A stretch of 62,048 nucleotides of DNA, the filler included, from Dugesia japonica (Eukaryota), in NCBI GenBank assembly GCA_001938525.1. It is 5 parts of 5 records of this genome, joined end to end, with 100 filler letters (N's around TTAATTAATTAA, not from the genome) between each part and the next. Parts side by side here need not be neighbours in the genome. Positions count along the whole stretch, not along the records: positions 43,600 to 62,048 come from MQRL01568987.1; 4 more parts are not named here. One strand, 5' to 3'. Below the pieces are notes generated by a model. That model was not told the DNA's origin. It ran no database searches and worked only from the letters and a program-made list of their open reading frames with translations. Shown piece after piece: positions 1-59,572 of the stretch. Position numbers and translations under genes: made by a program. The stretch's first letter is position 1. Each line of letters begins with the position of its first letter.

Positions 1-990
1 GGGTAATTATCAAAAATCATTTAATAAATAATTCAGGAAAAATATAAAATTAACATTAAATCAATTTGACAAGAAAAATTATGTTGTATTAGGAAGCACA
101 CTAGATGTATATTTATACCTAGGAATGAAAATAAAAAAAATTCATTCCAAATATAAATTGAAAACAAACCCATGGTTTAAAGAATATGTTCACAAACTCA
201 TACAATTAAGAAAAGAAGCAAAAAGCAACGATGTTTTCGGGAACTACATTTATAAATTAATACTTAATGCATTTTATGGAAAGACCTTGGAAAGCATTAG
301 AAATAGGTGTAATGTTGAAATAGTTGACAATGATAGCGATTACCAGAAATATGCTAGTAAAAAAAATTTTAGATCGAGTAAAATATTTACATTAAAAGAT
401 TCTGGAGAAGCTGAATCTGCAGCAATGCATATGAGGAAAAGCAATTTAAAATACAAAAAATTTCCATACATTGGTTTTACTATTTTAGAGTATGCAAAGA
501 AAACAATGTATGATTTTATTTATGAATTACAACAAAAAATAGGACAAGAAAATTTCAAAATACATTACATTTCCATCTTTGTAGAAATAATTGGAAGAAA
601 TAATTTAACACAAGTTAAAAGTTTATTAGGAAATGAATTATTTCTGATGAAAGATGAAAAGCCCGATTCTGAAATAATAAAATGTAACTTTATAAAAGCA
701 AAAAGTTATATAATTGAAGACCACAAGAGAAATATAGAAACAAAACACAAGGCATATAGAAAATTAATAAAATTGAAATGGAACATTTTGATAAGGCTCT
801 AAAAGATCAAACAGAAATAATTTATGGAACCAATTATTTTCTAAAATCTCATAAACACGAGATTGAACTAGTTGAGTAAAACAAAATAGCTCTAACAGGA
901 TATGATGATAAGAGAATAATTGAGGATAATGGTATAAGGACATGACTACAGGGCAATAAGTTTTATTGTGATGAATGGCATTTAAAATAA
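1..990 (+). pseudogene. Protein-primed family B DNA polymerase (pPolB), C-terminal half
   Basis: Motif B KLILNAFYGK, PYIGFTILEYAK and, after a frameshift near 750, KIALTGYDDKRII. Motif C reads IHYISIF, so the catalytic DTD is missing. Confidence 0.9.
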
Positions 991-2958: not shown

Positions 2959-3357
2959 TTATACAAAAAGTAAAATACAAAGAATTCCACAAATTTTCAC
3001 ATCAAAAGGTTGAACTTGAATTTTATTATATTTTTTCATCAAAGGTTCAATTTCATCAAATGGTTTTAATCCAAAAGAATCAAAATAAATACCGTTGGTA
3101 AATTCAACCCAATGATTTCCTTTTTGATTTGAATTTTGATAATTAATAATGTATGGTTTATTTATAAACCGATTTACATCTTTTAAGGTTCCATTATTTA
3201 TAGATGCCAAAGGCACTTCATCTTTCATCAAAATTTCCAATTTTAAATGTAAAAATTCTGCAATAGAAAACAAATCAAAATTTGATGTTGTATTTATTCC
3301 AAAGGTTTTTAAAAAATCAATCAAGTTATAGGACGAAGTTAAGCATCGCTCGGGCAT
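2959..3357 (-). CDS. Adenain-like cysteine protease (Maverick PRO)
   Basis: YIINYQ..GNHWV (His), YFDSFG (Asp), VQP (Gln) and ICGILC (Cys) occur in canonical order. Confidence 0.88.
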   Translation of the reverse strand: MPERCLTSSYNLIDFLKTFGINTTSNFDLFSIAEFLHLKLEILMKDEVPLASINNGTLKDVNRFINKPYIINYQNSNQKGNHWVEFTNGIYFDSFGLKPFDEIEPLMKKYNKIQVQPFDVKICGILCILLFV

Positions 3358-4016
3358 TTTCTTAAATGAACAAATAAAGAAATTGTTTCTTGGTTAAAAT
3401 CTATAGTATTGAAATTTTCATCCACAATATTAAAAATTAAAGAATCAATATATTTGGTATTTATTTTTGAATAAATTGTAGTAGAATGTCTTTCAACAAT
3501 TTTAAAACCAAAAGGAACAGTATTTACAGGAAAAGAGTACAAAAGATTTATTTGATTGGTTTCTCCAGGTGGTGATTTTATATAATTTCCTTTTACCAAG
3601 TTACAAGTAATATTTACCATGTTTACATTACAAATGTCAATTTTTTTATCTGAATAATAATCTCCTGGTTTATATTCCTTTACTGAAAAACCCAACATTT
3701 TATGAAAAAATGATGCTTCATCAAATTTTATTGTTGCTTTTGTTTTCAGAGTACATTTTGTTGTAGAAGTATCTGCAATAATTTCTATTCCATGTTTTTC
3801 CAATCGATTTGAAATTTCTTTAATTTCATATTCTCCAGGTTCAACTTTAACAATTTCGTTATATTTTGTAAAATGGTTATTTTTACTTGTGACATTAAAA
3901 ATTATATTGTAACATGTAACAAGTTCATGTTCTGAATTTAAATCCAGATCTAAAGAAATTTTTAAATCTAGTTTTAAATCTTGTTCATGTCCAACTACTA
4001 AAAATTGGTGAGACAT
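3339..4016 (-). CDS. Minor capsid protein (penton, single jelly-roll)
   Basis: NVTSKNNHF, PGEYEIKEI, MLGF, ITCNLVKGNY, LYSFP..VPFGFKIVE and IVDENFNTIDF motifs typical of Maverick/adintovirus penton. Overlaps the PRO start. Confidence 0.85.
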   Translation of the reverse strand: MSHQFLVVGHEQDLKLDLKISLDLDLNSEHELVTCYNIIFNVTSKNNHFTKYNEIVKVEPGEYEIKEISNRLEKHGIEIIADTSTTKCTLKTKATIKFDEASFFHKMLGFSVKEYKPGDYYSDKKIDICNVNMVNITCNLVKGNYIKSPPGETNQINLLYSFPVNTVPFGFKIVERHSTTIYSKINTKYIDSLIFNIVDENFNTIDFNQETISLFVHLRKCPSDA

Positions 4017-5015: not shown

Positions 5016-5556
5016 TTAATTCTGGTTTTCACTTCCATTTTGATAAGGATTTAAATGTAAACCATTTCTATTGTGATAATATTTAAAATATAAACCATCA
5101 CCTTGGATTTCTATTTCAATTCCCTTTATAAAACCTTGAGTAATTTTTTTAAAAGAGGGATCTGTGATCCCATTTTTTAAATATTTGTGAATCACAGAAC
5201 CTTGGTAAGGATTTAAAAATATACCACTTCCAACAGTGCCGTCACCAGACGCTTGCTTTTTTAATTGATTATCTAAAAGTTCAATTTCTTTTTGTTTTTT
5301 AATTGAATCCCGGGAATTACTTACGGTGCCTGCTATGGCTCCGGCTGGGCCAGCTGCAGTTCCAATTCTTGCAATTATTCCCGGATACAAAGCCAACAAT
5401 GGAAGTATTCCATCTTCAGTTTTATTAGTTTGTTTTTTTTATTTTTTGTTTAACTTGTTTACTAATCCAATAATTTTTTCCATTTATCTTTATAGATTTA
5501 CATTTGTTTGAATTTATTATTTTTTGTAATTCTTGTTCTGTCGTTTCTTTCATCAT
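5016..5556 (-). pseudogene. Putative virion core protein
   Basis: Basic N-terminus, GILPLLA, Ala/Gly-rich stretch and repeated G(S)GIFLNPY/GLHLNPY motifs. Homologous to 57561-58010. Confidence 0.6.
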
Positions 5557-6727: not shown

Positions 6728-6769
6728 GGCTCAAACGAGTCTTCCATAATTTCATCAGTTTCTCTGTTT

Positions 6770-7200
6770 AAATAATAATAATTATATTTAGTTTTCCAAT
6801 GTAGGTTTACTTGATAATCATATTCTTGTTTAGTTTAAAAAATATTACTATATAAATCATGATAAATAATATCCTTGTCAGTTTTGTTTAATTTAAAAAA
6901 TATTTAACAATCACTATTATTTCTTATCGAATTTTTATCAAGGTTAAAATAAGTTTCTGAAATATAAATTACATTATAATTGGAATAACGACCTCGAGTA
7001 AAATAATTTTTTTGTATTTCTTTATTTTTTATGATTTACCACATCATCGAAAATTATTAAGTTTTATTTATCCTTTCTGAGTTTATCACAAGGAATAATT
7101 TTATTTGGTTTATTGCTTAAAGTTACATTTATAGATTGTGGTTTTACTGTTGTCATTTTCTTGTCGATGAAAAATTTCAAAATTTGTGTTGGTGTTTCCC
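6770..7200 (-). pseudogene. A32/FtsK-like packaging ATPase, C-terminal half only
   Basis: Reverse strand gives NLIIFDDVV (Walker B) and FTRGRYSNYNVIYISETY. The Walker A half is deleted. Confidence 0.85.
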
Positions 7201-8440
7201 AAGAATTTGTTTACCTTGTAAATCACTAATTCCAAAAGTCCAAGGATTTGTTTTGTAAATTTTTGTTATTACAAATATTTCTTCTGTCCATTCAAAAGTA
7301 TAACCTTTTTCAAATGTATTTTTGTAAGCCATTAATCTTAGTCGATCTCCAATTTTGAATTTTTGATTTAAATTTTCATTTTCATTATTATGTTTTTCAA
7401 TTTGTTGTTTTATCATTTCTGGATTTAATGTTGCTTCTAAAGGTGTAACTTGGATTAATGAATGAATTGTATTAATATAATTATTTACAATTTCTTGTAA
7501 CAATTGATCATGAACATTTTGATTCCCAACAGTAGTAAAATGTTTAAACAATTTATTTTTAAGTCTTCTATTAAATATTTCTATTACAACTGCTTTACCT
7601 TCATTTTGAGTTGAATACAAATTAATATTATTCTTGGTACAAAACGATTGAAATATTTTGTTGTAAAATTCTTTTCCATTATCAGTCCATAAATCTATTA
7701 TTATCATCAATAATCTTTTCAAAAGCATCTTTTACAGAAGTTCCAGTTTTACTATTACAAATTTCTATAAAAGCAAATCTTGTATACAAATCAATTACTG
7801 TCAAAATTACCATTTTATTTTTTCGTCCTTGTCCATGAAAAATTAAATCTGCTGACAAATTTTCATGTTTTCCTTTTATGATTACTTTTAGAAAATGTTT
7901 TGGTTTTCTATATTCATGATGTAATTCGCTTGATAATATGAAGCGAATGGAATGAGCTCCTTGTTTAGTTTTAAATTTAGAAAATGTCATTCCAGAACCC
8001 TGGTTTGAAATAATGGCCCCTGGGCCATGTTTATTTTCATTTTTATAGGTTTCAGGATTAAAGGTGGATCTCACTACGCTCGATCCGATTATTTTACCTT
8101 TCATTGCTAATTTTACAAGAGTTCTTTGCATTTTTTCAATCAAAGTTGGATTTTCAATATTGTTCAAATCATGAATTAAATTTACATCTGCAATAAGGCG
8201 ATCTCTAATATCAGTAGAAATATAAGCAAGATCATGTTTTAATGCAGCTTCATCAACTTTATTAATTGGTTCTTCTCCAGGTTTAGGATTACTTTTGGAA
8301 TCTAATCTTAAATCTAATCTAGTTCCTGGTCCAGTGTAATTATGTTTAAATAAATGTTGCTCTCTAGTATATTTTTCAAAAGTAAAAGGTTTTAATAAGT
8401 TTGATGTAATTTTAGAAGATTGATGGTCACCACCATTATT
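7195..8440 (-). pseudogene. PLA2-domain / rve integrase fusion protein (frameshift near 7700)
   Basis: HNYTGPGT..DEAALKHDLAY..RLIAD (parvovirus-type PLA2) is in frame with ELHHEY..SADL..VIDLYTRFAF. The frame continues as WTDNGKEFYN..VIEIFNR..FKIGDRLR. Confidence 0.9.
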
Positions 8441-9300
8441 TAACGTAAGTTTTCTTACTTTATTACCTGGAATGCTTTGATGTTCTGCCACTACAGGTAA
8501 ATCATTGAGATAATCTTGTATTTCTGGTTGGATTATCATGTTTACCTCTAAAGTATATCCTTAGTATAATCGTCTTAGATTCTATTAATACTGATTCTAA
8601 ACCAGTATGTACCCATTTGAAATATTTAAATGGCCGTTTCAGGCTAAAATCTCATCTATATAGATTAGACTTTCACTAGTGGTGACATGGTGTTAATTAA
8701 TAAATGTCAATCCTCCTCTTACTATAATTTCTAAAAAGGTGTACATACAATTGTCGGTCTACAGTTGCATGGATTCATTCAATGACATGAAGGTTGATAA
8801 TTAACTCATATCTGATATGCTAAAGAAATTCAATGGCTCTAAGTTATTATGTAATAACGATTTAAACTTAAACTGTTATAAATAATCTGCCAATAAATAC
8901 ACATTCAGCTTTAAATAAATCATTATATAGCCCAGAAAATATTTGCAATTTGTTATTATCCATATTTTTAGTGTTTTCTCTTACGTTTTATTGATTTTAT
9001 CCAATCTAGGTAGAATTTATTTTGTTTCAACTGGACTTTGCAAACTGGTTGTATAATTATATGAGAATATTCCCGTAGATGCTGTTATTATTCTATCTTT
9101 AAATTCGTTTAACGAAAAAGGTGTCTTGTTTAAGGACTTTACCACTAAAGCAAGGGATGAGTTTATAAATTGATATGAAACTAAAAACTTTATTATAACC
9201 AATTTGATTTCATTTATTATCTACATACATGACTGAATTTTGTTTTATATTGATTTTCGTTATTTAAAGCACTCCATCAATTACTATTAAAATTCTTGAT
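8441..9300 (-). pseudogene. Second, heavily decayed pPolB (middle part) from another Polinton
   Basis: Fragments IKFLVSYQFINSSL, GIFSYNY, YLKLNVYLLAD, MYTFLEIIVRGG, LIYID and GYTLEVNMIIQPEIQDYLNDLP occur in the expected order. Confidence 0.75.
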
Positions 9301-9329: not shown

Positions 9330-10000
9330 TTACATGATCAGAAACTTTATATTTTTGGTTTTAATTGACTTTGGTTGTTTTCGTGATAACCATAATTTTA
9401 ATTGATTTTTTCTACTTACATCAATCTATCTTGCTCCATTCAATCCTTTATGAGATGAATGATTATAACTATGAATAAGTTTTAACAACAAATGCATCCA
9501 GGTTTTATTACTAGAATGCACAAAGTATTTCTTTGATGCATCTCTCAATGTACGATTAAAGTCCTCTACATGTATAACTTTATACTGTGAGGATACATTA
9601 TAATGTTTCATTTTTATATGAATAATACAATATATCACTTTTAACTTGTAAAATTAGTTACCAACATCCTTTTTAAATTATTTGGTGGCCATTTTCAAAC
9701 ATTGCCTTGATTGTTGGTTCTATATCATTAGATAATTTTTATTTGACTACAATAGCTCTAGCAACTCTACTAAATCATCAATACATGTCCAAGTACAACA
9801 TCAGACTTTACTTACAAGTCTTTTACAGTCTTGTCAACAACTTTTACTTGAGCATACATCATAGTATCATTTAAATACAAATAATCAGTTTGCAACCCAT
9901 TTAAAAAAAACTATATATCATTTGTACTTTCGAAAATTGTATTCATTGGAAACACATCTTTAAATACTCTGTATTCAATAACACCTTGAAGAGATGGATG
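9330..10000 (-). pseudogene. Second, decayed Polinton-type rve integrase
   Basis: VEDFNRTLRDASKKYF..WMHLLLKLIHSYNHSSHKGL. Confidence 0.75.
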
Positions 10001-14499: not shown

Positions 14500-17290
14500 A
14501 GAAGATGATTGTAAAATTCTGACGATAGAAGAGATAAAGCGACAAGAAATAAGTTATGACAAGATGCAAGGTAGACCANGTATAACGGTTGAAATAAAAA
14601 AAAGTAAAAGTTGATTGCTTGTTAGACACTGGAGCAAGAGTTAATTTTATGAGTTTGAGAATATTGGAAAGATTGAAAGAAGTCAATATATTAAAAAGTA
14701 AAGACAATTTAACATGTGCCAATAATAGTCCACTTGAAATCGTCGATACGATAATGGTCGAAGTAAAATTCGAGAATAAAAGCGAAACAGTTAAATTCAT
14801 TGTGGTGAAACAGATACACCCAGATCTAATTGGAGGAATAGAATTACAGAAACAGTTTGGATTCCAACTACTGAGAGAGACTAAATGTGAGGATACTAAA
14901 ATGTATCTTTGTAATATAGAAGCAAAGTATAAACGCAGTACAACAGATGAATAGAGAGTACATAGAGCAATAAAAACATTGATTAACAAGCCAAATGAGA
15001 ATTTAGAGGATGTTATAAGGATTTATAAAGGGATATTCATGGCAGACAACTGGGATATCGGCAGAACAACAATGGCAGAACATCAAATAATCACAAATGG
15101 AGAACCAATAAAAACAAAACCATGGAGACAACCAATGTATTTAAAAAATAAGATCGAAGAAGCTATCAAAAATTTGTTTGATAATGGCATTATTAGGAAG
15201 TGCAATTCGCAATGGAACACTCCGTTAATATGAGTTTGGAAAAAAGAAAGGAAAGACGTTAGATTGTGTCTTGATTTTAGAAAACTGAATGCAATAACAG
15301 AAAGGCAAGCATTTCTGATGCCCAATGTAGAGGAAATACTAGACAATTTGAGTGGTGCAAGATATTTTAGTACTATTGATTTGGGNNNNNNNNNNNNNNN
15401 NNNNNNNNNNNNNNNNNNNNNNNNNNNNNNNNNNNNNNNNNNNNNNNNNNNNNNNNNNNNNNNNNNNNNNNNNNNNNNNNNNNNNNNNNNNNNNNNNNNN
15501 NNNNNNNNNNNNNNNNNNNNNNNNNNNNNNNNNNNNNNNNNNNNNNNNNNNNNNNNNNNNNNNNNNNNNNNNNNNNNNNNNNNNNNNNNNNNNNNNNNNN
15601 NNNNNNNNNNNNNNNNNNNNNNTTTTAAAAGAATTCAAGAATCAGGATTGAGAATTAATCCGGAAAAATGTCATTTATTGCGAGCAGAAGCCAAATGTTT
15701 AGGATATATCATATACAAGAATAGAGTTTGAACTGATCCAACAAAAATTGAAGCGATAAAAAATTTCGGAAGACCTAAATAAGTAAAGAGCTTCAGAAGC
15801 TTTTTGGGAATATGCAATCACTATAGACGGTTTATCAATAACTATTCAAAGAAAGCTAGAAGCTTGGATGAGCTGTGTGGAAGTAATAATACAAAACTTG
15901 TGTGGTTGGAAAGTTGTGATAAAGCTTTTAATGAGATGAAAGAGGCATTNNNNNNNNNNNNNNNNNNNNNNNNNNNNNNNNNNNNNNNNNNNNNNNNNNN
16001 NNNNNNNNNNNNNNNNNNNNNNNNNNNNNNNNNNNNNNNNNNNNNNNNNNNNNNNNNNNNNNNNNNNNNNNNNNNNNNNNNNNNNNNNNNNNNNNNNNAG
16101 CTCATGAAAAGGGATATTGTATAACAAGAAAAGAATTATTGGCCATTTACTATTTTTGTAACCATTTTAAACTTTATCTGTATGGAAAAATATTTTGGTG
16201 AGAACAGATCACAAGGCGATCGCATTTATGAAAAAGACAAACAAGCCAATTACTCCACAGTTTCAGACTTGGATGAATTTTCTTAGTAGCCTAGATATGG
16301 TATTGGAATTAAGACAAGGTTCGAAACACACGAATGCAGATATGCTNNNNNNNNNNNNNNNNNNNNNNNNNNNNNAATGCTTAACAGATCATGAGAATCC
16401 AAAGGAAGGAAAAATAAAGACAAGAACAATTAATGGTATATCAGGTTCAGATACAGATAAATGGAAAAGTAATGTAGAAGAAATTGAACAGATAAAGAAT
16501 GATATAAAAAATGGAACATGTAAAAGTTTCGATTAATAGAAGATATAATAAAAACAAAAGATGGCAAAATATGGATCCCATCAGAAAAGAAAATTCAAAT
16601 GGTAAAAGAAATCCATAAATTATTGGTGCTTGCATGCACGAAAAAATTCATAAATTATTTGAAAAATGAATATGATATGGAAGAGTTAAGAGAAACTGTG
16701 TCAAAAGTAATTAAANNNNNNNNNNNNNNNNNNNNNNNNNNNNNNNNNNNNNNNNNNNNNNNNNNTTAGAACAAAGGAGGAAACTATAAAATTAAAGGCT
16801 TATGAACCATTTGAGAGTATTTATATTGATATCTGTGGGTCTTTCCAAGAAACTGTAGGAAGATAAAGATAAATATGTGCCATAATAGATAAATTTAGCA
16901 GATACATTTGCTTAACAGCCCTAGTTAAACAAGATGAGGAATCAATAAAGAAAACAATTATGGATAAATGGATACTAAGATTTGGTGCCACAAAGGAGAT
17001 ACATGTAGATTATGGAAAGATCTTTGAATCAAAAGCCTTCAAGGAAATGACAGATTCAATGAATATAACGATTTGCTTCTCAAGTCAATATCATCATAAT
17101 ACAAACAGAATAGTAGAACGTCAATTCAGAACGATCAGAGATTACATCAATACAACATTAAAAAATAAAAAGAATAGAAATTGTGCAGAGTTAATACCAG
17201 AAATCGAATATACTCTAAATGCAACAAGCCAGAAGACTTTGGGCATAAGTCCAGCAGAAGTATAGGAATTGGTCAGAGGTATACAATAAA
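14500..17290 (+). mobile_element. Ty3/Gypsy pol (protease-RT-RNase H-integrase), pseudogenised and gapped
   Basis: LLDTGA, CLDFRKLN, YFSTIDL, GLRINPEKC, RTDHKA, IDICG, HVDYG and VERQFRT occur in PR-RT-RH-INT order. Confidence 0.93.
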
Positions 17291-29409: not shown

Positions 29410-31687
29410 ATGCTTGCAAAATGCGGTTTAGTTCGATTTAAGAACATTGGGTTACAATGTATTTTAATTAACAAAATTGAATTACTTTTAATGTAAAATA
29501 ATTCTTAGTTTTGAGGAAAGAAGTGACTAGTGCTTTAATAAATCCGAATAAAATTGAAGTATTTGTTGATGATATTCCTGTTCAATGTGATCCGGGGATG
29601 ACTGTATTACAAGCTTGTTCCATTGCAGGTGTAGAAATACCTAGGTTTTATTTAAAAATTTTTTAATTTAAAAAATATTTTAAATCTCCAATGAAAAGGT
29701 TCTGTTATCATGAGCGTCTATCAATTGCCGGAAATTGTAGAATGTGTTTAGTCGAAGTTGAAAAAAGTTTGAAACCTGTAGCGAGTTGTGCCGCTCCAGT
29801 TAATAAAGGCATGAGAATAAAAACGAATTCTCCAATGACTAAAAAAGCTCGAGAAGGTGTAATGGAATTTCTACTTGTAAATCATCCTTTAGATTGTCCA
29901 ATATGTGATCAAGGTGGTGAATGTGATTTACAAGTAATTTATAAATATATGCCTGTCTTAAATTATTTTAAAATTGTTATTTTATTAGGACCAATCAATG
30001 ATTTTTGGGAGTGATCGATCAAGATTTGTCGATAATTCGTATTTAGGAAAAAGGTATTTTTTAATATTAATTATTTTCATTATTATTATTACTAGAGCTG
30101 TCGAAGATAAAAACATAGGACCATTAGTGAAAACTATTATGACGAGGTGTATCCATTGTACGAGATGTATAAGGTTTATTAGTAATTTTATGTTTTCGTT
30201 ATTATAGTTTATAAATTAAGATTTGCTAGTGAAGTTGCCGGTGTGAATGATTTAGGAACAACTGGTAGAGGCAGTGACATGCAGGTAAATGATTATTTGT
30301 AAATTCACTTTTAAAAAACATTAAATTGCAGAAAGTTTACTGATTTAATTAAATTCTTTCACCAAAAACTTAAACAATTAACACAACTAATCACAACCGC
30401 TCAAATAGTCTTATTTTATTTATGTTTCATTAATCAAATTGACAAATTTATATTGTTCTAATAGCTTTAATTATTTGCCATAAAATCATTTTTATTGCTG
30501 ATATTATTTCCATATTGTTGAATTTAAAATAATTAAAATTAAATTAAATTATTAAAACTATTAAATTTGTTTATTTCTTTTTTATTTTTTGTGTGAAAAA
30601 AGATTTTTGATATAACGTTTTGATCATAAAAGTTATTACAAATAGCAAGTAAAAGTGGTAAACGTAATTTCAATAAAAAAATTATGTATTAATAAATATT
30701 AAAAATAACCTGTCATTTCCTCATATAAAAATTAAAATTTAGCTACTGTTTTCGCAGCTAAAAATATTTCCATTATTAAATAATTAAATTAATTTATTTA
30801 CAATATTGTGACCCTGTAATTTTTATTTGGCCCCAAAGTGATTTGAATTTGATAATCTTAATGAATAAAATCTTATATATTTCTTGATTTTCTAAAAAAC
30901 TGTTATATATATTAAAATGTTTTATAACAGCCACGACCCTGATAAAGCCAGTCGGGTAGTTTTTGTAAATCGTGAAATATAAATGTTTTATTGAGTTACG
31001 ACTGAGCTGCAATTTTATAGCAATTTTAAACATTACATAATTTATATAATTGAATAATGAAAGATTTTTTGGAATGTTTTATTTTTGATAGTTTTCGATG
31101 TGATATTTTGAATTTCTTTGTAAATACTCCTCAATTATTAACAATTATTGTCAAATATTTTTATACAAAATTTTAGGTAAATATAGAAATAGATTTAAAC
31201 TTATTAATAAACTTATGATAAACTTCAATATTAAAAACCAATTATTTATCAAGGTATTTTACATCCTTGTAATTAAGTTTCTGTTATTTCTTCAGGTTGG
31301 AACATATATTGAAAAGCTGTTTCGAAGTGAGCTATCTGGAAATGTTATCGATCTTTGTCCTGTTGGTGCTTTAACATCTAAACCTTATGCTTTTACGGCT
31401 AGACCATGGGAAACTAAAACAGTTAATAGTATTGATGTCATGGACGCTGTTGGTTCCAATATTGTAATTTCTATGCGAACTAATGAAGTTATGAGAATTA
31501 TTCCAAGACTCAATGAAGTAAAATAGATTTTTATTTCCTGTTATAACGCTAATAATATATTTAAATAATTAAGGAGATTAACGAAGAGTGGATAAATGAT
31601 AAATCTCGATTTTCTTATGATGGTCTTAAAAGGCAACGATTGTTAAATCCTATGGCAAAAGATCCAAGTACTAATATTTTGACTCCT
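29410..31687 (+). CDS. NDUFS1: NADH:ubiquinone oxidoreductase 75 kDa Fe-S subunit, 5' part. Exons: 29410-29458, 29509-29644, 29699-29933, 29989-30053, 30096-30173, 30221-30284, 31296-31517, 31574-31687. No further exon was found before the scaffold end.
   Basis: The spliced frame gives [72 protein letters not shown] and [12 protein letters not shown]. All introns are GT-AG with consistent phase. Confidence 0.97.
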
Positions 31688-50213: not shown

Positions 50214-50439
50214 AAGTTACCAATATGTCAGTATCGTGATTTTCAAATCTAGAATACATGTTTGTGTGTCTATTCGATATTTTCCTTTGTTGTGGGTTCT
50301 TCAGTTGTTACAAAAATTTTTCTCTTTTATAGGTATAAACCAATTATTAATAATCTGATAAACCATGTTGTAAAATAAAATGTTTGCCTTAGGATACATA
50401 AAATTCTAACTCTTGCTCTCATTAATGTGTATCTTTTAG

Positions 50440-50799
50440 TGCATTCTTCATTGAATCGCGTATCGGCTCCTACAAAAAAGATGCGAGATGATAGTGAGAA
50501 CCGCGAGATGACATGAGACCTGTATTGACTCGCTAAGCGTAAGTGGGAGGTGAATACATCTAACGCTAATAGTAAGGTAAGCCGATACCGAAAAAAATGT
50601 GTAGCTTTCCGAAAAGAAAGTTGAGGCTTCCCATGCATAAGAAAGGGTGTGGAATGGGCAAGTGGAGTCACTGGTTGACATGATCCGGTCTTACCAAGAC
50701 CGCGAAAATAAACTGGTGAGTGATGTAATGAAATTGAAGGTTTCCATGCCCCTTGAACCTTTGATGGTCGAGAAAGGCACTCAGACCCCTAAGAGTTAA
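50440..50799 (+). pseudogene. Unknown cassette ORF3, copy B (ends in KGTQT motif)
   Basis: Begins ttttag|TG CAT. Reads HSSLNR..APTK..SKVSRYRKKCV..DRENKLV..PLEPLMVEKGTQT with stops and one frameshift. Homologous to 58987-59345. Confidence 0.8.
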
Positions 50800-50936
50800 T
50801 GCATATACAATTTTTGTTAATAAACCTTTTGTGTGAACCTTCTTATGGCTTTTCTTTTCATTGTTTTACATTATGTGAGTAATCAGTTTAGTCTTTATGA
50901 AAATTTTATTTGAGAATTAACTTTAAATTATTTTAG

Positions 50937-51319
50937 TGCCTCGTACCCGTTTCCCGAACAATCTTCGTCGGTGCCATCACATTATGCGCTGACTCCTTAT
51001 CGAAAGGCATTTGAAGCGTAAGATAGACCGAACACTTCTTAAACAATTATCACAGAAGGACAGATTGATTAAAAAATTAGATATAATCGTAAAAAAGCAG
51101 AACGACCTTGTTATGCAAACGAAGGCCTTAGAAGCCGAAAATAAACAGTTATTGCAGAGGAAGATCGAGTTCTTAAAGCAATTTATTGACGATATATCCC
51201 GACAAATAGGCAACCCAACTGTAACACAATGGGATGACGATAATGACATCGAAGCCTTCAACTTTTTGGTGACAGAACCAAACCAGTGGTTTGATCCAGG
51301 GGCGCTGGATTTGCTTTAA
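50937..51319 (+). pseudogene. Unknown cassette ORF4, copy B (basic region, coiled coil, acidic tail)
   Basis: Begins ttttag|TG CCT. Reads PRTRFPNNLRRCHHIMR*LLIERHLKRK..LIKKLD..TKALEAENKQLLQRKIEFLK..SRQIGNP. Homologous to 58545-58866. Confidence 0.8.
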
Positions 51320-51711
51320 ATATTTTCGTAAAATAAAATATCAAAAATCAAAATTGTAATCTTTTTCTTTTGATGATAACAATAAGGGAAAAATCATAGA
51401 ACCCAAAAATAAAGGTTTATCGACGTGTACCTTCCATTAAGAGTAAGGTCAACCACCATAAACTGAAAACCTACCACAGGGACGGTAAGGTAAATTCTTG
51501 AAAGGGTTCCCTTGAGGGCTATTTTTTCCCCAGCCACCTTTTCGTGTCACTCGACTCAGGTGGGACCCCAACAATTGTAAGCCAGGTCGTTTTCGAAGCC
51601 AGCTCGTTTTACAACCTTTAAAAATGTGGCCCGTAAATTTTGTGAGGAGTGAGGAAAAAATCTTCTCCTTCATCGTTGGACATGTGGCACGTTAATTTTT
51701 TACTTAATAAA

Positions 51712-52053
51712 ATGGCTTTAGAATTTGAAGATTAACATGTGAAAATATTGAGGAAAATTTAAAATTCGCAAGTAATTTTGATTCTCAATTATTTTTAAAA
51801 TCACAAAAGCTTTGTACACTAGCAAAATTTAAAAGAAATAAAATCAAGAAATCCTAATAAAAAAGATTTTTTAATTGCGGCCGAAATTGGAATAACAACT
51901 ATGTCTTTAAATAAAATTTTGCGAGAATTAAATGTAAAACCAGAAAGAAAAAAATATCATAGATTAAAATATTATTATAATGCAAAAACTCGGGAATATG
52001 AAAAAGATCAATATGGTAATTATTTTTTTAATGTAAAAACAAAAATTCATTAA
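51712..52053 (+). pseudogene. Small helix-turn-helix-like ORF, frameshifted
   Basis: EIKSRNPNKKDFLIAAEIGITTMSLNKILRELNV fits an HTH pattern. Confidence 0.5.
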
Positions 52054-52604
52054 AATAAAAGCTTTGATCAAAATGTTGGATTTTTTTTATTGAAATTTGA
52101 TAACAATTCGATATTTCGACCTTGTCTTCGTCAGGAATTGACTTTTTAATTTATNNNNNNNNNNNNNNNNNNNNNNNNNNNNNNNNNNNNNNNNNNNNNN
52201 NNNNGAAATAATTTATTTTTATTAAATTTTAATTGGTTAATTTTAATTCTTATTTTATATTTAATTATTTAATTTTTATTATTGCAAATTATATTTATTT
52301 TAGGATTGTTTTCTTTGATTAGTATTTCTTCATGTTTTTTCTGTGTAGTGTAGAAATGTAGCTTGTTCCAAGTGTTTTCCATGAAATGTGATGTTGTTCT
52401 GGTGAAATTTTATGTTTGTGTTGAAAGTGTTTGAATACTTCACTTTCTTTTTGTTTCAAATGTTCCTTAAAAACAAAAAGTTTGAATTAATTCCTCCAGC
52501 TAAAATAAAAATAACTTTAACTGAAAAAAGAAATGAAATAGCAAATCAAGAATAGCCAATTGAAAAGCCTAAAAATATTTCCAAGAAAAAAAATACTCGT
52601 GTAG

Positions 52605-53204
52605 GTGGCGCAGTTGAAGAGGAAATTGAAAAATCTTTCGAGTCGCATAAATAGTGCTATCAAGTTGCTTAAATTTATTAATTATAAAAATGATGATTTA
52701 ATGGAAATAATTAAACAAGATCCAACATTTAAAAGTAAATTAATTGAAGATTATTCTACCGTTGTAAAATCATCATTAAAAGAAAAAGAAGTTTTGATAA
52801 AAACAATATTTCCACAATATAAATTACTAGGTGAATCATTAGCTTTAGCAGGAGAAACTATTTATGATTTATCAAAAGAGAATGATGTTTTAAAAACCGA
52901 GTTGGAAAAAGCAGAGGAATTTGATCAAGAAAAGATTGAGAAATTAATTACAAAGAAAAAAACTCAAGAAGATGAAAATAAAAATAAAATAATATTAAAT
53001 GATTTAAGAAGAACAAACATGAAAACCAAACAATTGCTTTAGAAAATGGCGCGAGAAATAGAAACAAAAGAGTTGAATAATTTTATAAACAATACAACTA
53101 AATTAAATAAAAAAGTCGAACACCAGAAAAGTATAATTTTATTTTTATCAGTGATAATTTTCATGGGATTACTTTTTATGTTAATAAAATGGATACTAAA
53201 TTAA
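52605..53204 (+). pseudogene. Coiled-coil protein with C-terminal transmembrane helix (one internal TAG)
   Basis: Reading through the TAG at 53040 the frame continues to SIILFLSVIIFMGLLFMLIKWILN*, overlapping the capsid start. Confidence 0.55.
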
Positions 53205-54513
53205 ATTTAGATAATAATATTGACTTTTCACATGTTTCAATAAAAAATGATGTTTTAAAAATTTTACCTTCATCCGGTTCAATTAATAATCTAATGGCGT
53301 CGGGAGATATCGTTTTTCAATCTTTACAATCAACAAACCCATTAGACATTTGCAATGCGATGCTGTATTTTAAAATTGAAATCACAATTCCAGATAAAGA
53401 AAAGAAAAAGATAAATAACTTTAGAAAATAATTTCTTTCCAAGTATACTTAAATCCATGAGATTAACCTTGAGTTCAACAGATGTAGAAACAATAAATGA
53501 TCCGGGAGTAATATCAACAATGTTAAATTTAATTACAACTACAGAAACTTGAAAAAAAGAATATGGACAAATGTCAGGATGGATGCCAGATACAAATAAA
53601 GAAGATACAGAAGTAAAATATTAGAATTCTAATACTGGATATTATAAGAGAAGGAAATTATACCTCAACAAGAAATTTGAAGGTTATTTTTTATTGAGAA
53701 ATTTATTTGGTTTTATGCAAAATTATAATAGACTTTTATACAACACAATGATTCAATTTACTTGTAATACACAAATGAATGATAATTTATTATTTTATGG
53801 AGAAAAAGATGCAACAGCGGCTTTAAAATCAATAACCATTGAATTACGCATACCAGAATTTAGATAATTACCAAAATCAGAATTATTTTTATTAGAAAGA
53901 ATTGCTACAAATAAACCAATAAAAGTTTCATACTTAAATCGAATAACTGCAAAAACAAATTTAGATTCTGGAGGATATTGTTCAATAAAAATAAGTAGCT
54001 TAGCATACAAACCAAGATATATTTTTATTGGAATAAAAGATAATGAAATTTCATTTCAAAAGAATAATAATTTATTTATACAAAAATTATCCAAGAAAGT
54101 TAAACAAGGAAATCCAGAAGCGGATGTAATAAAAGATTATTACATAAAAAGCATACAGACACAATTAAACAATACTTTTTATCCGATTAATGAATGTAAG
54201 TTTAATATGGAAAATAATGAAATGATTTTTCCTTATTTAAATTATACAAAATGTTGTCACGATTTTTTTTAACAGAATCACAGGTATCACTTTTAGATTT
54301 TGGAAACCTAAACCCAATATTTAGTTTTGATGTAAGTGCGCAAGATGATAAATTAAATATTAGCAATGTTGATGTAAGACTTTACACATTACAAAAGATT
54401 AAGATTTTAGAGGAACTGTTTATTGGTGTATCCTTGAAGAAAAACATGTAGAAATGAAATTACCAAATAGTAAAATTGTTATGGTGGAAAATGTGAGGGG
54501 ACTTAACCTTTAA
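53189..54513 (+). pseudogene. Major capsid protein (double jelly-roll, hexon-like), frameshifted
   Basis: ILPSSGSINNL..GDIVF, LENNFFPSIL.SMRL..VETINDPGVISTMLNLIT, GWMPDT, LFGFMQNY, KPRYIFIG and PIFSFDVSAQ are motifs of Maverick/adintovirus MCP. Confidence 0.82.
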
Positions 54514-54543
54514 TGTTAAAATTTTAAAATTTATAAATAAAAA

Positions 54544-55790
54544 ATGGCAAGTCTAATATTTAAATGTGAAAACTGTAATAAAATTTTATCAAGGAACAAT
54601 AAATCGAGACATTATAAAAATTGTAAGCAAACCGGAGGAGATCTCCAATCTTCTAATATTACATCAGCGTTATTAAAACCTTTTACTTTGGAAAAATATC
54701 CTGGTGAGAGACATTTGTTTAAACATAATTACACCGGACCGGGAACTAGATTAGATTTAAGATTAGATGAAAATAATAATTCTTCACCCGGAGAAGAACC
54801 AGTTAATAAAGTTGATGAAGTCGCATTAAAACATGACATTGCTTATCATTCAACCGATATTAGAGATTGTTATCTTGCAGATGTAAATTTAATTCACGAT
54901 TTAAATAATATTGAAAATCCAACTATTGGAGAAAAATTACAAAGAGCTTTAGTTAAATTAGTTATGAAGGGAAAGATAATGTTAGGACAAGGCGTTTTAG
55001 CACATGAGCTTCACTACGAATAGAGAAAACCAAAACATTTTCTAAAAGTAACAGTACATGATAAAGATGAAACATGGTCGGCAGATTTAATTTTTCATGG
55101 AATAGAAAGAAGAGGTAAAATGGTAATTTTAACAGTAATCGATCTCTATACTCGTTTTGCATTTTTAGAAATTTCAGGAGATAAAACAGGACCACAAGTT
55201 AGAAATACTTTTGAAAAAATTATTGGAAAAATAATAGAATGCCGAATAACTTGTGGGTGGATAAAGGAAAAGAATTTTATAATAAATCATTTCAAAATTT
55301 TTGCATTAAAAATAAAATTAATTTATACTCTACTGAAAATGAAGGTAAGGCAGTTGTTATAGAAAGATTTAACCGAACATTTAAAAATAAGTTGTTTAAA
55401 CATTTTACTACTGTTGGGAATCAAGATATTACGGATTCTTTATTACAAGAAATTGTAAACACTTACAACAACACAGTTCATTCATCAATAAAAACCACAC
55501 CACAACTTGCGAAAATAAATCCAGAAAATATTAAAGATGAAATTGAAAAACATAATACTGAATATGATAATCTAAATGAAAAGTGTAAATTTAAAATCGG
55601 TGATCGAGTAAGAATGTTTAAGGTAAATAAAACATTAGCAAAAAGTTATACAGTTAAATTGTCAAAGAAAATTTATTTAGTAACAAGAATTTACAATACA
55701 AGACAATGAACTTTTCAAATTAGTAATTTAAATGGTGAAAAAATTCCTGGGAGATTTAATACTAATGAATTACAGAAAACAGCATTTTAA
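54544..55790 (+). pseudogene. Zinc finger / PLA2 / rve integrase fusion (TAG at 55021, frameshift near 55235)
   Basis: CENCNK..SRHYKNC, HNYTGPGT, DEVALKHDIAY, then the same frame gives HELHYE*RKPK..WSADL..VIDLYTRFAF, followed by WVDKGKEFYN..IERFNRT. Confidence 0.9.
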
Positions 55791-55908
55791 CCAGCGCTCA
55801 TAAATTACTTTCATTAAAAATCTTAAAATGTAAAGTCCTAAAATGTTAAAGTGTAAAAATATAACACTTAATAGGTTGCTGCGCAACCTTAAATTAATTT
55901 TATAGAAA

Positions 55909-56648
55909 ATGAATGAATTAATATGGAGAAAAAATACAACACTATTTAATAATAAAGTTTTACCAAATAATTTTAGATTATTAATGATTGGATCTTCAGG
56001 TTGTGTGGAAAATGTTATATTAATGAAAATGTTACTAACACCAGATTTTTTAGATTACAATGTTTTAATTTTTTTATTCAACAACAATCAATCAATTTGA
56101 AATACAATTGGTTTATATAGGTTTTGAAAATGGATTAACTAAACAAGAAATAATTTCAATGTTTGAAAATCAAAATATGGTTCCTGATTCTTACAGTACA
56201 CCACATCAGGTTTTTCAATTTTATTTAGATAAAAAATTAGTTAAAAAACCAAGATCAATAAATGTTACACTAAGTAATATTTCTTGTGATAAACTTTTGA
56301 GGGATAAAAAAAATTTAATTATTTTTGATGATGTTGTTAATGATAAAAATCAAGAGATACAGAAAAGTTATTTTACTCACGGTCGTCATTCAAATTGTAA
56401 TGTAATTTACATTTCCCAAACTTATTGCCATTTAGATAAAAATTCTATAAAGGAATTATTCAAATTGTTATATTTTTTTCAAACTAAATAAAACAGATAG
56501 AGATAATGTTTATCATGAATTATTTTCAAATATTTTTAGTAATAAGATGGAATATGATTATGAAACTAATTTACACTGGAAAACTAAATATAACTATTTT
56601 TATTTAAATAAAGAAACTGAAGAAATGTTGGATGATTTATTTACATAA
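55909..56648 (+). pseudogene. A32/FtsK-like packaging ATPase
   Basis: RLLMIGSSGC (damaged Walker A), LIIFDDVV (Walker B) and HGRHSNCNVIYISQ. Confidence 0.88.
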
Positions 56649-56689
56649 AAATTTTTAAATAGTATCTACGATAGTTTTATAATTATCCA

Positions 56690-57385
56690 TAATTTTACAA
56701 AATGAAATTTTACAAAATACCACTAAATCTTATTATATTTTTATTTATATAACTTTTTTTTATAATTTATTCCAATTGATTGTAAATACATTTCCATGTT
56801 TATTTTATCTTTTAATTTATTTTTCATTGCTTTAAATATTGAACCTAAATATGCAGAACTAATTAATGTCATTTTTTCATGATCACCATGCCACCGTTGA
56901 GTGCTTTCAGTTAAAACCTCTAAACTTTGAAAAGTAAAATTATAACGAGCCTTTTTAAAGGCTTGAATATTAAATTCAGTTTGTGGTTGTGAATTATATT
57001 CCAATTTAAATTTTTCTAAATCAAATTTATTTTTGATAACATTTTTATGTTTTTCTTCAAACTCTGTAACAATATCTCTTTCAGGAATATTTACATCAAC
57101 TATATCACTCTCGTCAATAGCATAAAACACCTCTTCATCTTCAGAATCCTCTTCCTCTGCTTTTATTATTTCCTCTACATTTAGTGGGGTATATCTCGAC
57201 TTGAATAATTTTTTATAACTTTTATCTATATAATCTTCAGTAGTTAATTCATCAAGAAATTTTTCATCACTAATTAATTTTTTATCATCTTTTTCTGCAA
57301 AACGTAGTTTACAATCATCACATAATATTTTTCTAAATTAATAACGTCGTTTAATATTTTTTTTACTTGACTAAAAACACTCCAT
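56690..57385 (-). pseudogene. Maverick ORF of unknown function, homologue of 5762-6727
   Basis: Same position and orientation as in copy 1. Shares CxxC and YL.S.GINYK. Confidence 0.65.
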
Positions 57386-57437
57386 TTTTACTAGTATTTT
57401 TTTAATCATAATATTATTTTTTTGACCCACCCCGAGG

Positions 57438-57495
57438 GACCCGACTCATAAAAGATTCGACTCATAAAGGACCCGACTCATAGGGACCCGGCTCG
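57438..57495. repeat. About 16-bp tandem repeat (gacccgactcataaa) in the divergent intergenic region
   Basis: Three full units and one partial. Same position as the 25-bp repeat of copy 1. Confidence 0.85.
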
Positions 57496-57560
57496 TTTTA
57501 TGATCCTCTTTAAACTTTTGTTCCCCAAAATTTTTTTGCCTCAAATTTTTCCTTTAAAAA

Positions 57561-58010
57561 ATGGAAAAGCCTACAGAGGATAAATTGAAAAAAATAATAA
57601 ATTCAAACAAGTGTAAATCAGTAAAAATTTATGACAAAAATTCTTGGATTAGTAAAAAAGTAAAAGAGGAAACAAAGAAAGCCCACGAAGGTGGTTTTGC
57701 ATTTTTAGCAGCAATCCCCGCAGTTATTGCAGGCCTGGCATCTGCACCGGCGTAGCCAGTGGCATTGCCAGTACCGTAATAAATTCACGGGCCGCTCAAG
57801 TTCAGGGTCTTGAAAAATGAAAAAAGAAAAAGAAATTCAAATTCTAAACTTGGGCTCTGGACTTTATTTATATCCTTATCAAGGTTCTGCAATTCATAAA
57901 TATTGAAAAATTACTAGGAACCTAGGTTTAAAAAATATTACACGAGGTTTTAAAAATGGGGTAGAAATAAAAGTAAAACGTAATGGATTATATCTAAGGC
58001 CTTATAAATA
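57561..58010 (+). pseudogene. Putative virion core protein, homologue of 5016-5556
   Basis: MEKPTEDKLKK..HEGGFAFLAAIP, LGSGLYLYPYQGS and GLYLRPY. Confidence 0.6.
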
Positions 58011-58021
58011 TCCTTTGGAAA

Positions 58022-58545
58022 ATGACGACGAGAACGGAGAAGAGGATCGAGGAACTGAAACAATTGATTAAAGCTCGAGGAAATTATAATATTTTTTACT
58101 GGGAAAATTGTTGAATCGAGAAAATTAAAAGCGAAGTTAACAACTCTACAGTGGCCAACTATTAGAGCTATTGAAAAAATTACAATTAAATCCAACTCAA
58201 TAGATGTAAGAGATTTAACAAATTTTTTTTCAAGTGAAAAAAAAATTCCATTTACTCCTGAATACTCTATTAATAATGTAAATGCTAGTGGAATGTTAAC
58301 TGAAACAATTATTCCTCGATATTCTGGATTAAATGTTATTGGTTTAGCTGGTGCGAAAATGTTTATGAAAATAACTTTGAAGGAAAATAAAATTCATTTA
58401 TTTGAAGAATATGGGGAAATAAATTATTATTAAAATCAGAAATTATTCCATTCACTGATTATTTAGAATAATTTTGGGGAATCAAGATGGCTTGGAAACA
58501 CGTGAAGATATTAGGACTTATTTATATAAATTAATTTCTCCTCTC
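58022..58545 (+). pseudogene. Conserved Maverick ORF, homologue of 4023-5010, truncated
   Basis: FTGKIVESRKL..LQWPTIRAIEKI and ILGNQDGLETREDI. Homology stops abruptly near 58545. Confidence 0.7.
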
Positions 58546-58866
58546 ACAACCAACAGCCGTCATCATCGTTCGAATGGATCCAAGCTGGGTTCCCAATCTG
58601 TCGGGAAAGATCAGCGATATACAGTTTTAAGAAATCTATTTTTCTCAACAGTTACTTCTTATTCTCTACCTCTAGGGCTTTGGTTTATATTGCTAAGTTG
58701 TTTTGCTTACAAACTACCAAATCCAATTTTTTTATGAGTTGATTCCTCTGGGCAAGGTGCTTAAGAAGAGCTTGTTCTGTTTTACGCTTTAAGTGACGCT
58801 CTAATAATAGACGGCGCAGGATACGGTGGAACCTCCTCAAACTAGTCGGAAACACGATTCGAGGCA
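58545..58866 (-). pseudogene. Unknown cassette ORF4, copy C
   Basis: Begins ctttag|TG CCT. Reads PRIVFPTSLRRFHRILRRLLLERHLKRK..LIKKLD..TKALEVENKK*LLRKIDFLK..SRQIGNP. Confidence 0.8.
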
Positions 58867-58986
58867 CTAAAGAAAAAGTACAATTAAATTAATGAATACC
58901 CAATCAACGACTCAGGAAAAACAAGTAACAGAAGAACTTCATACAAATAAATAATTTATTAACTCAAACAATAATGAAATAACAAG

Positions 58987-59345
58987 TTAGGAGCGGCTCG
59001 TCTGAGTACCTTTGTCGATCATTAGCGGCTCGAGTGGGATTTTCTCCCGGAGAATGAAGATATCGTTAACTAGTTTATTTTCTCGGTCATGGCTGGACCA
59101 ATTAATCTTTGAAAAAGATTCCACTTGTTTTTTCCAAGTGCGCTCCTGTAAATGGGAGGCCTCGGCTTCCTTTTTAAAGTGAACACACTTTTTCTTATAA
59201 CGGAGGACTTTACTATGGGCCGCGGCTACCTCAGCTTCTCATCGGCGTTTTGCTTACCGGTATAAATCCCAGGTGAGTTCGAGGTCCTCAATGGTATCAC
59301 GGATTTGTTTAGTAGGAGCTGGGGGGCGATTTAAGGAGGAATGCA
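58987..59345 (-). pseudogene. Unknown cassette ORF3, copy C
   Basis: Begins ttttcag|TG CAT. Reads HSSLNRPPAPTK..SKVLRYKKKCV..DRENKLV..PLEPLMIDKGTQTSRS*. Confidence 0.8.
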
Positions 59346-59572
59346 CTGAAAAGAGAAAACTTATATATATTTTATCGAAAATAGATAAAGTTATGTTCCA
59401 AAACGACACAGTAGTCATAAATTCGATTACTAAGTTCTATATAACCTAAATCTACTTATACACCTATGAAAAAATCTGAGAACAAAACACACAAAAATCT
59501 ATTATATTTTATAATATATTTCTACATATATTTTAGCCGAGCCAATTTTATTATAGGTCACCCTACAATTCA

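Follow-up and report, generated by a model that had tools for sequence, protein, structure and literature searches.

RESULTS

Two degraded Maverick copies join a PLA2 domain to an integrase

The window (the whole 62,048-nt stretch of Dugesia japonica DNA analyzed here) contains two copies of a gene in which a parvovirus-type PLA2 domain precedes an rve (DDE) integrase (Table 1). In copy 2, Pfam family PF08398 matched within positions 54544 to 55020 (E = 6e-9), with an NYTGPG Ca loop at 54727-54744, the catalytic DxxAxxHDxxY motif at 54814-54846, and a downstream Asp within 54874-54885. The integrase starts in the same frame as PLA2, past a TAG codon (55021-55023) at a column where each of the 17 remaining rows of alignment A1 has a sense residue. 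The original prediction noted this TAG, where copy 1 has Tyr, as the one interruption of the frame running into the integrase N terminus of copy 2; the codon was confirmed. A frameshift near 55230 and a second stop at 55707-55709 also break the gene. Its integrase residues lie near 55078-55089 (first Asp), 55254 (second Asp), and 55359 (Glu), and the gene ends at 55790, directly past the integrase C-terminal part, with no chromodomain.

At residues 67-140, the stop-free frame of copy 1 (read from 8560 to 7682) scored above the PF08398 cut-off (E = 3e-8), and its residues 235-286 matched the start of rve (E = 3e-4, a match that is cut short). The Ca loop (NYTGPG, 8341-8324) and the catalytic motif (DxxAxxHDxxY, 8254-8222) thus run in one frame into the integrase N terminus, as had been predicted for this copy. 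PF08398 scored 34.2 and 36.5 bits in the two copies, versus a curated cut-off of 23.9; the start of rve was matched in both, and profile matches continue across the pieces. Neither copy is intact: both are frameshifted inside the integrase (copy 1 near 7690), and copy 2 has stops in addition. From motif positions, the linker of copy 1 is 46 residues longer than that of copy 2, close to the 45 or so first estimated. The zinc-finger-like motif had been read as an addition in copy 2. It is present there, but cannot safely be called an addition: the two copies share solid DNA homology only from 8435/54633 onward (286/347 nt), and a homology search found no capsid gene upstream of copy 1, so the missing finger may reflect loss of the 5′ end. 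The corresponding C2H2 finger of relatives gave weak zf-U1 and zf-DBF matches, below the cut-off.

Table 1. Features of the two element copies, numbered along the whole window
Feature	Position	Strand	Basis or remark
Copy 1, stop-free frame of 292 aa: PLA2 (8395-8090), long linker, integrase start (7930-7694)	7682..8560	-	
Copy 1, integrase catalytic core and C terminus, in a different frame	7177..7731	-	Homology, profile matches
Copy 1, NQGSG in the linker, a GxG motif	7991..8005	-	Fits the wider (M/I/L/N/Q)xGx-G rule (available text of PMC6048507)
Copy 1, packaging ATPase, in pieces	6733..7207	-	Homology
Copy 1, separate gene for a pX-like core protein in which GxG motifs recur	5016..5438	-	Homology
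Copy 1, candidate adenain/Ulp1-type maturation protease	2959..3393	-	His…YFDSFG…Gln…Cys order
Copy 1, C-terminal part of putative DNA polymerase gene, cut by window start	32..802	+	tblastn
Copy 2, fragmented double jelly-roll major capsid gene immediately upstream of the fusion	53111..54451	+	Homology
Copy 2, zinc finger-PLA2-integrase gene, broken	54544..55790	+	Pfam, profile matches, homology
Copy 2, N-terminal C-x2-C…H-x3-C zinc-finger-like motif	54565..54624	+	Motif reading
Copy 2, Gly-Gly motif ahead of PLA2	54628..54639	+	Candidate processing site
Copy 2, parvovirus-type PLA2 domain	54673..54987	+	Ca loop, HDxxY, downstream Asp
Copy 2, MLGQG (hydrophobic-G-x-G) at the close of the last PLA2 helix	54979..54993	+	Candidate cleavage site
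Copy 2, rve (DDE) integrase part, in pieces	55003..55790	+	Pfam, profile matches
Copy 2, A32-type packaging ATPase, in pieces, directly downstream of the fusion	55909..56642	+	Homology
Copy 2, pX-like remnant	57826-58029	+	

The surrounding genes are those of a Maverick/Polinton (Polintoviricetes), with an rve integrase, a double jelly-roll capsid protein, and an A32/FtsK-type ATPase. Copy 2 has the order capsid gene, fusion, packaging ATPase, and then pX-like remnants; copy 1 reads fusion, ATPase, pX-like gene, penton-like gene (a tentative label from homology and position), candidate protease, and polymerase fragment. A homolog of the copy 2 capsid gene at locus L019 matched PF21738 (E = 4.5e-28), and the packaging ATPase, located in both copies, gave a Pox_A32 match above the cut-off (E = 6e-7). 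The gene at 5016-5438 is tentatively labeled pX-like; the matching module at locus L017 hit Adeno_PX below the cut-off (E = 0.002). The candidate protease has no Pfam match of its own and matches domains in L012 and L017; we presume it to be a protease from its motifs and this homology. The putative polymerase fragment, likewise without a Pfam match, aligned with an 857-aa open reading frame (ORF) of L012 (tblastn E = 9e-20).

Around copy 2, neither a polymerase nor a protease nor a penton-like gene was recovered from 48-62 kb at E = 0.05. The copy is flanked by decayed inverted arms (50.4-51.2 kb and 58.6-59.4 kb; 66-74% identity), at which exact element ends were not found. Copy 2 thus seems to be an element of about 9 kb (50400-59400) lacking these three genes, and each of its long arms carries the same small ORF (50993-51319 and 58559-58783). 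Four of 24 listed runs were compared with 53100-56700. Two contig sets of the best-matching organism gave 12,062 and 11,233 matching pieces there, as for a highly repeated family. Over the same interval there was no sign of transcription in two RNA runs, of which about 6% and 25% were read, with four partly fitting reads in each. Elsewhere in the window lie other decayed integrase fragments at 9414-9716 (-) and 15234-17286 (+), the latter accompanied by part of a reverse transcriptase, as in an LTR retrotransposon, and a host exon resembling NDUFS1 (NADH dehydrogenase 75-kDa subunit) at 31296-31526 (+), between the two elements. This nuclear exon shows that the host is a eukaryote whose genes have introns.

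The fusion is a widespread family trait

A search for longer relatives returned six proteins, one of them an intact 530-aa PLA2-rve protein. Its junction region, used as query, retrieved 23 proteins, 16 of which carry both PF08398 and PF00665. We then used an integrase-only query with a length range that admits stand-alone integrases. Of the 714 matches, the best 120 were classified with a PLA2 profile: 72 have a full in-frame PLA2 domain, 6 a partial one, and 42 none. The integrase of intact relatives scored above the Pfam rve cut-off. With copy 1 as query, 150 representatives were obtained, of which 44 run into integrase, 52 have another tail, 45 fall short of the domain end, and 9 stop there. 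Named carriers include a gene model of the coral Oculina patagonica, and in gene models of the limpet Lottia gigantea PLA2 runs into the first 20-25 integrase residues.

Metagenome contigs were scanned with one pattern per domain, so that unfused genes could be caught too. Six of the 36 loci recovered do not span the junction, and 25 of the remaining 30 read through it (a tally taken from frames). In L026 and L043 the linker is frameshifted and the integrase has no start codon; in L039, L041, and L046 an integrase of a different type has a start of its own, immediately downstream of the PLA2 gene. Linkers are in frame and stop-free in 25/27 fused-type loci despite very different lengths. The fusion was absent from all 12 viral_contigs loci (0/12). 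Single-protein scans of viral and metagenome contigs with P0002 returned nothing, but the alignment-based scan did recover loci. Eight of the viral_contigs loci (L001-L007 and L009, about 3.3 kb each) carry a stand-alone PLA2-like ORF of 131-137 aa with a Gly-rich and then basic end. The PLA2 gene and separate integrase of L041 (292-5136) face a 1162-aa ORF on the opposite strand, in which we presume polymerase-like and helicase-like motifs; L039 and L046 are its close relatives. In P0002, a seven-residue unit that ends in Gly-Gly occurs six times within residues 30-80, between zinc finger and PLA2.

A consistent stop between the two domains in intact relatives had been named beforehand as telling against the fusion; instead, relatives read through the junction. 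Chance stop loss peculiar to the window was rejected, as relatives carry PLA2 together with rve, and so was an intron in place of the linker, as linkers remain in frame and stop-free. Judged by this comparison, the fusion is a native gene of a Maverick/Polinton lineage rather than a product of decay, and it is widespread and under selection. Between the two copies, dN/dS was 0.30 for PLA2 (116 codons) and 0.33 and 0.32 for the integrase (75 and 149 codons). Among core clusters with a full PLA2 domain, HDxxY is kept in 55/55, the Ca-loop pattern in 53/55, and the downstream Asp in 54/55; the DDE pattern is present in 53/64 core clusters. Both enzymes thus look selected, from kept motifs and dN/dS. 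Some PLA2 domains of fusions outside the core clade have diverged (Ca loop in 25/38, Asp pattern in 15/38).

The window copies nest among fused integrases

In a quick, unrooted IQ-TREE analysis of 157 integrase rows, for which the query favored the fused neighborhood, the two window fragments form a sister pair (SH-aLRT 99), closest to P0010 and nested among fused proteins. The window side of a branch with support 100 holds 78 rows: 67 fused proteins, 3 PLA2-tail proteins, L026, the 2 window fragments, and 5 rows without PLA2. Among these five, P0030 is a short member of the P0010 cluster, P0215 lies on a 1.2-kb contig, L041 and L046 form long branches, and P0270 appears, by our own reading, to be frameshifted; none of the stand-alone integrases in the clade of the window copies is convincing. 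This clade has no chromodomain, and a C-terminal extension of more than 30 residues occurs in 1/64 core clusters. On the branch's opposite side, fused, stand-alone, and protease-fused integrases are mixed. With five fragments dropped, the remaining 152 rows require 13 state changes, in which gains are not separable from losses because the tree is unrooted and the query favored this neighborhood. P0188, whose PLA2 is linked by a longer N-terminal part to an integrase that is very distant, suggests that the fusion arose more than once. In the P0228-P0265 clade, gene calls split near-identical chromodomain integrases into fused and stand-alone forms; the latter start where the fused forms have their linker, either a polymorphic stop loss or a gene-calling effect.

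An AlphaFold model of P0010 (14-row alignment; pLDDT 74, pTM 0.41) has confident PLA2 and integrase parts and low-confidence joints. Its integrase has the fold of retroviral integrases and matched the PFV intasome in Foldseek (E = 1.7e-13), with a MELD virus integrase as the best viral match. Foldseek lists for the whole model contained integrases and no PLA2 structure, and a PDB sequence search gave only insignificant parvovirus capsid matches (E of about 0.5).

Glycine motifs mark the joints between modules

In 62/64 core clusters the last PLA2 helix ends at a boundary Gly, always behind a hydrophobic residue. The motif is GxG in 47 clusters, GG in 8, and GxA or GxS in 7, so that GG or GxG occurs in 55/64. 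In the P0010 model, this Gly follows a predicted helix (residues 132-151), and confidence drops directly past the motif. Linkers range from 2 to 51 residues across the core, and many are only 2-4 residues long. In copy 1 the usual boundary motif is degenerate. The original prediction took MLGQG of copy 2 as an adenain site. It does fit (M/I/L)xGx-G literally (hyphen, cut), but P4 is not a family rule: the strict consensus, (M/I/L)xGG-X or (M/I/L)xGx-G, occurs in 10/64 core clusters, and P4, two places before the boundary Gly, is Lys in 37/62. The looser specificity of the mavirus protease, which is described as cutting GG-X and GX-G (available text of PMC6048507), fits 55/64 core clusters in terms of motif presence only. 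The same available text reports two GXG sites left uncut by that enzyme, and a GxG also lies inside the PLA2 Ca loop; GxG alone is therefore insufficient for cleavage.

The motif is older than the fusion. It was found in 37/41 PLA2 proteins with other tails, versus 39/41 fused ones, and it also ends PLA2 in PLA2X-type proteins, where a basic peptide and pX follow, as in L010 and L012 with their basic peptide and pX-like segment. Because it ends a predicted helix and is present in so many PLA2 proteins with other tails, it may be structural. Further Gly pairs lie outside that helix: GG or GxG occurs within 28 residues upstream of PLA2 in 39/53 core clusters. Inside integrase bodies, GG/GxG occurred 6 times versus 40 in shuffles of these related rows (range, 23 to 55); eight other residues lacked a comparable drop (that of Pro and Thr was smaller). 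The scarcity extends to stand-alone integrases (3 versus 21), and as the sequences are related this lends weak support.

The same motifs appear where other modules meet. Among the best 120 of the 714 integrase matches, five proteins (P0241, P0251, P0278, P0291, and P0296) have PLA2 replaced by a domain resembling a cysteine protease. Their integrase bears a chromodomain, and at least two protease subtypes occur: three proteins matched Peptidase_C5 below the cut-off (E = 4e-4 to 3e-3), and the remaining two match the window's candidate protease. GG or GxG lies within 22 residues before the integrase start in 5/5; these Gly pairs cannot be a PLA2 helix cap. A scan for the DNA of P0278 did not find it, and the five fusions are known as called proteins only. 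At one locus each, L012:471-1535 (-) has PLA2, a basic peptide, a pX-like segment, and a protease in a single frame, and L017:2182-3513 (-) has a protease and a pX-like module in a single frame, both connected through the same GG/GxG motifs. Together, these joins suggest modular shuffling of the core proteins behind Gly sites.

DISCUSSION

A packaged precursor as the favored reading

The two copies in the window are decayed endogenous members of a Maverick/Polinton lineage. In this lineage the integrase gene natively encodes a multipart precursor: an optional zinc finger, a Gly site, parvovirus-type PLA2, a second Gly site, a variable linker, and an rve integrase lacking a chromodomain. With a single frame, one translation yields lipase and integrase at 1:1. 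The precursor would most likely be packaged into the capsid, and the cysteine protease of the element family would cut the GG/GxG joints at maturation; the freed PLA2 could then serve endosome escape and the freed integrase insert the incoming genome. The integrase appears to have moved into the cargo slot after a Gly site that already existed, with pX on a separate gene. A packaged precursor that is cut by the maturation protease and codelivers both enzymes is the reading we favor, with a probability somewhat above even.

Packaging and cleavage had already been part of the original prediction. The Gly motif at this joint and at others, and the mavirus precedent, lend them circumstantial support, but the adenain-consensus argument is weaker than first stated. 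For cutting by the element's own protease, copy 2, with none found in 48-62 kb, would need the enzyme in trans. Further points against a cut precursor are the adenain P4 in just 10/64 clusters, the motif in unfused PLA2, the 7/62 boundary Gly residues without a second Gly, the near-identical integrases of one clade called fused and unfused, and the single-locus status of the L012 and L017 arrangements.

Several of these points would suit a packaged fusion that works uncut. The Gly would then cap the PLA2 helix or form a hinge, and an integrase bound to the genome ends would carry a tethered lipase, or the reverse. Its position after the modeled helix, its occurrence in unfused PLA2, the mostly Lys P4, the GxA/GxS variants in 7/62 clusters, and the many linkers of just 2-4 residues agree with such a cap. 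However, a helix cap needs one Gly, yet 55/62 clusters carry a second, and Gly pairs also lie ahead of PLA2 and at the protease-integrase joints. We consider an uncut fusion unlikely, though worth keeping in view.

Gene compaction without shared function, in which neighboring PLA2 and integrase genes lost the intervening stop and integrase is still made alone from an internal start, by splicing, or from a separate transcript, would account for the separate start of the integrase behind PLA2 in L039, L041, and L046, for the mixture of fused and stand-alone calls among near-identical chromodomain-clade sequences, and for the 13 state changes. In 48/64 clusters a Met does occur, either among the final 12 residues of PLA2 or within the linker; however, 42/64 have none between boundary and integrase start, and none sits at a fixed place. 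The linkers of 25/27 fused-type loci, unlike introns, are in frame and stop-free, the two exceptions being frameshifts without a start codon, and a convincing stand-alone integrase is missing from the window's clade. We judge compaction improbable. Slightly less probable still is a PLA2 that acts later, with the integrase-genome complex at the nuclear envelope, or is a mere membrane anchor: physical linkage to integrase and the catalytic motifs kept in the core clade agree with this, and a Ca loop in just 25/38 fusions outside that clade suits a binding-only role there, but for the parvovirus domain the described site of action is the membrane of the endosome, during entry (available text of PMC4642659).

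Novelty and implications

Maverick PLA2 genes, PLA2X, possible Hexon-adenain fusions, and replicase fusions are described in the available text of earlier work (PMC8502044, PMC5803895, PMC3671162, PMC11296320, PMC4642659, PMC4061559, PMC6048507, PMC11161782, PMC11071296, bioRxiv 10.64898/2026.10.13.758929 and 10.64898/2026.06.19.733378). A full-text search, with most subscription papers and Repbase outside its scope, found neither a PLA2-integrase nor a protease-integrase fusion. The PLA2-integrase architecture is visible in automatic Pfam annotation and is thus unremarked in the text covered rather than proven unseen; the protease-integrase, protease-pX, and PLA2-pX-protease joins and the Gly motifs at the joints are new here.

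That animal Maverick particles carry their own integrase has so far been inferred mostly from gene content. A virion-entry lipase that dozens of divergent clusters keep in frame with integrase provides genetic evidence for integrase as virion cargo. It also supplies concrete candidate substrates and sites for the protease, whose specificity we found described only for adenovirus and mavirus. The fusion proteins are now annotated as "transposase," as "hypothetical," or as PLA2-like host genes. More broadly, Mavericks may load non-capsid cargo by a retrovirus-like polyprotein, with PLA2, pX-like, protease, and integrase modules interchangeable through GG/GxG and arranged in varying orders, and fusion to a virion protein gained repeatedly, and this may be how many of them package integrase. 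To this generalization we give a little less than an even chance.

Comparison with known systems

In retroviral Pol, integrase enters the particle within a precursor, from which the viral protease frees it. The Maverick protease and capsid are unrelated to those of retroviruses, the virus has a DNA genome, and integrase is partnered with a lipase (a cysteine protease in five relatives).

Among Mavericks, the closest parallel is adintovirus PLA2X (Starrett et al. 2021, PMC8502044, available text), which likewise places a parvovirus-type PLA2 in a virion module followed by a second module; that adintoviruses have PLA2 genes had been noted correctly at the outset. The PLA2X-type ORFs of L010 and L012 have the same K-x-K-x-hydrophobic-G-x-G end as the fusion family. 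Unlike in PLA2X, the C-terminal partner in the fusion is integrase, and the pX-like protein is on a separate gene. In the searchable parts of that paper, "fused" and "fusion" are absent from the main text, and these words and five protein motifs gave 0 matches in the supplement, whose sequence files probably lay outside the search and may hold such proteins. Adintovirus integrase has a C-terminal chromodomain (Buck et al. 2024, PMC11071296, available text). It shares the DDE integrase, with its retroviral-integrase fold, and a neighborhood of capsid, ATPase, and putative protease genes with the fusion, which differs in its in-frame N-terminal PLA2 and, in the window's clade, in having no chromodomain.

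The CAP protein of a Spodoptera Maverick has a PLA2 domain that retains its catalytic and Ca-binding residues, as here, but its ORF is separate from INT (PMC5803895, available text). In the mavirus virophage, the virion contains an rve integrase and a predicted hydrolase cut by the protease into two fragments (Born et al. 2018, PMC6048507, available text). There, integrase and hydrolase are encoded by separate genes, and the latter is an alpha/beta hydrolase rather than a PLA2.
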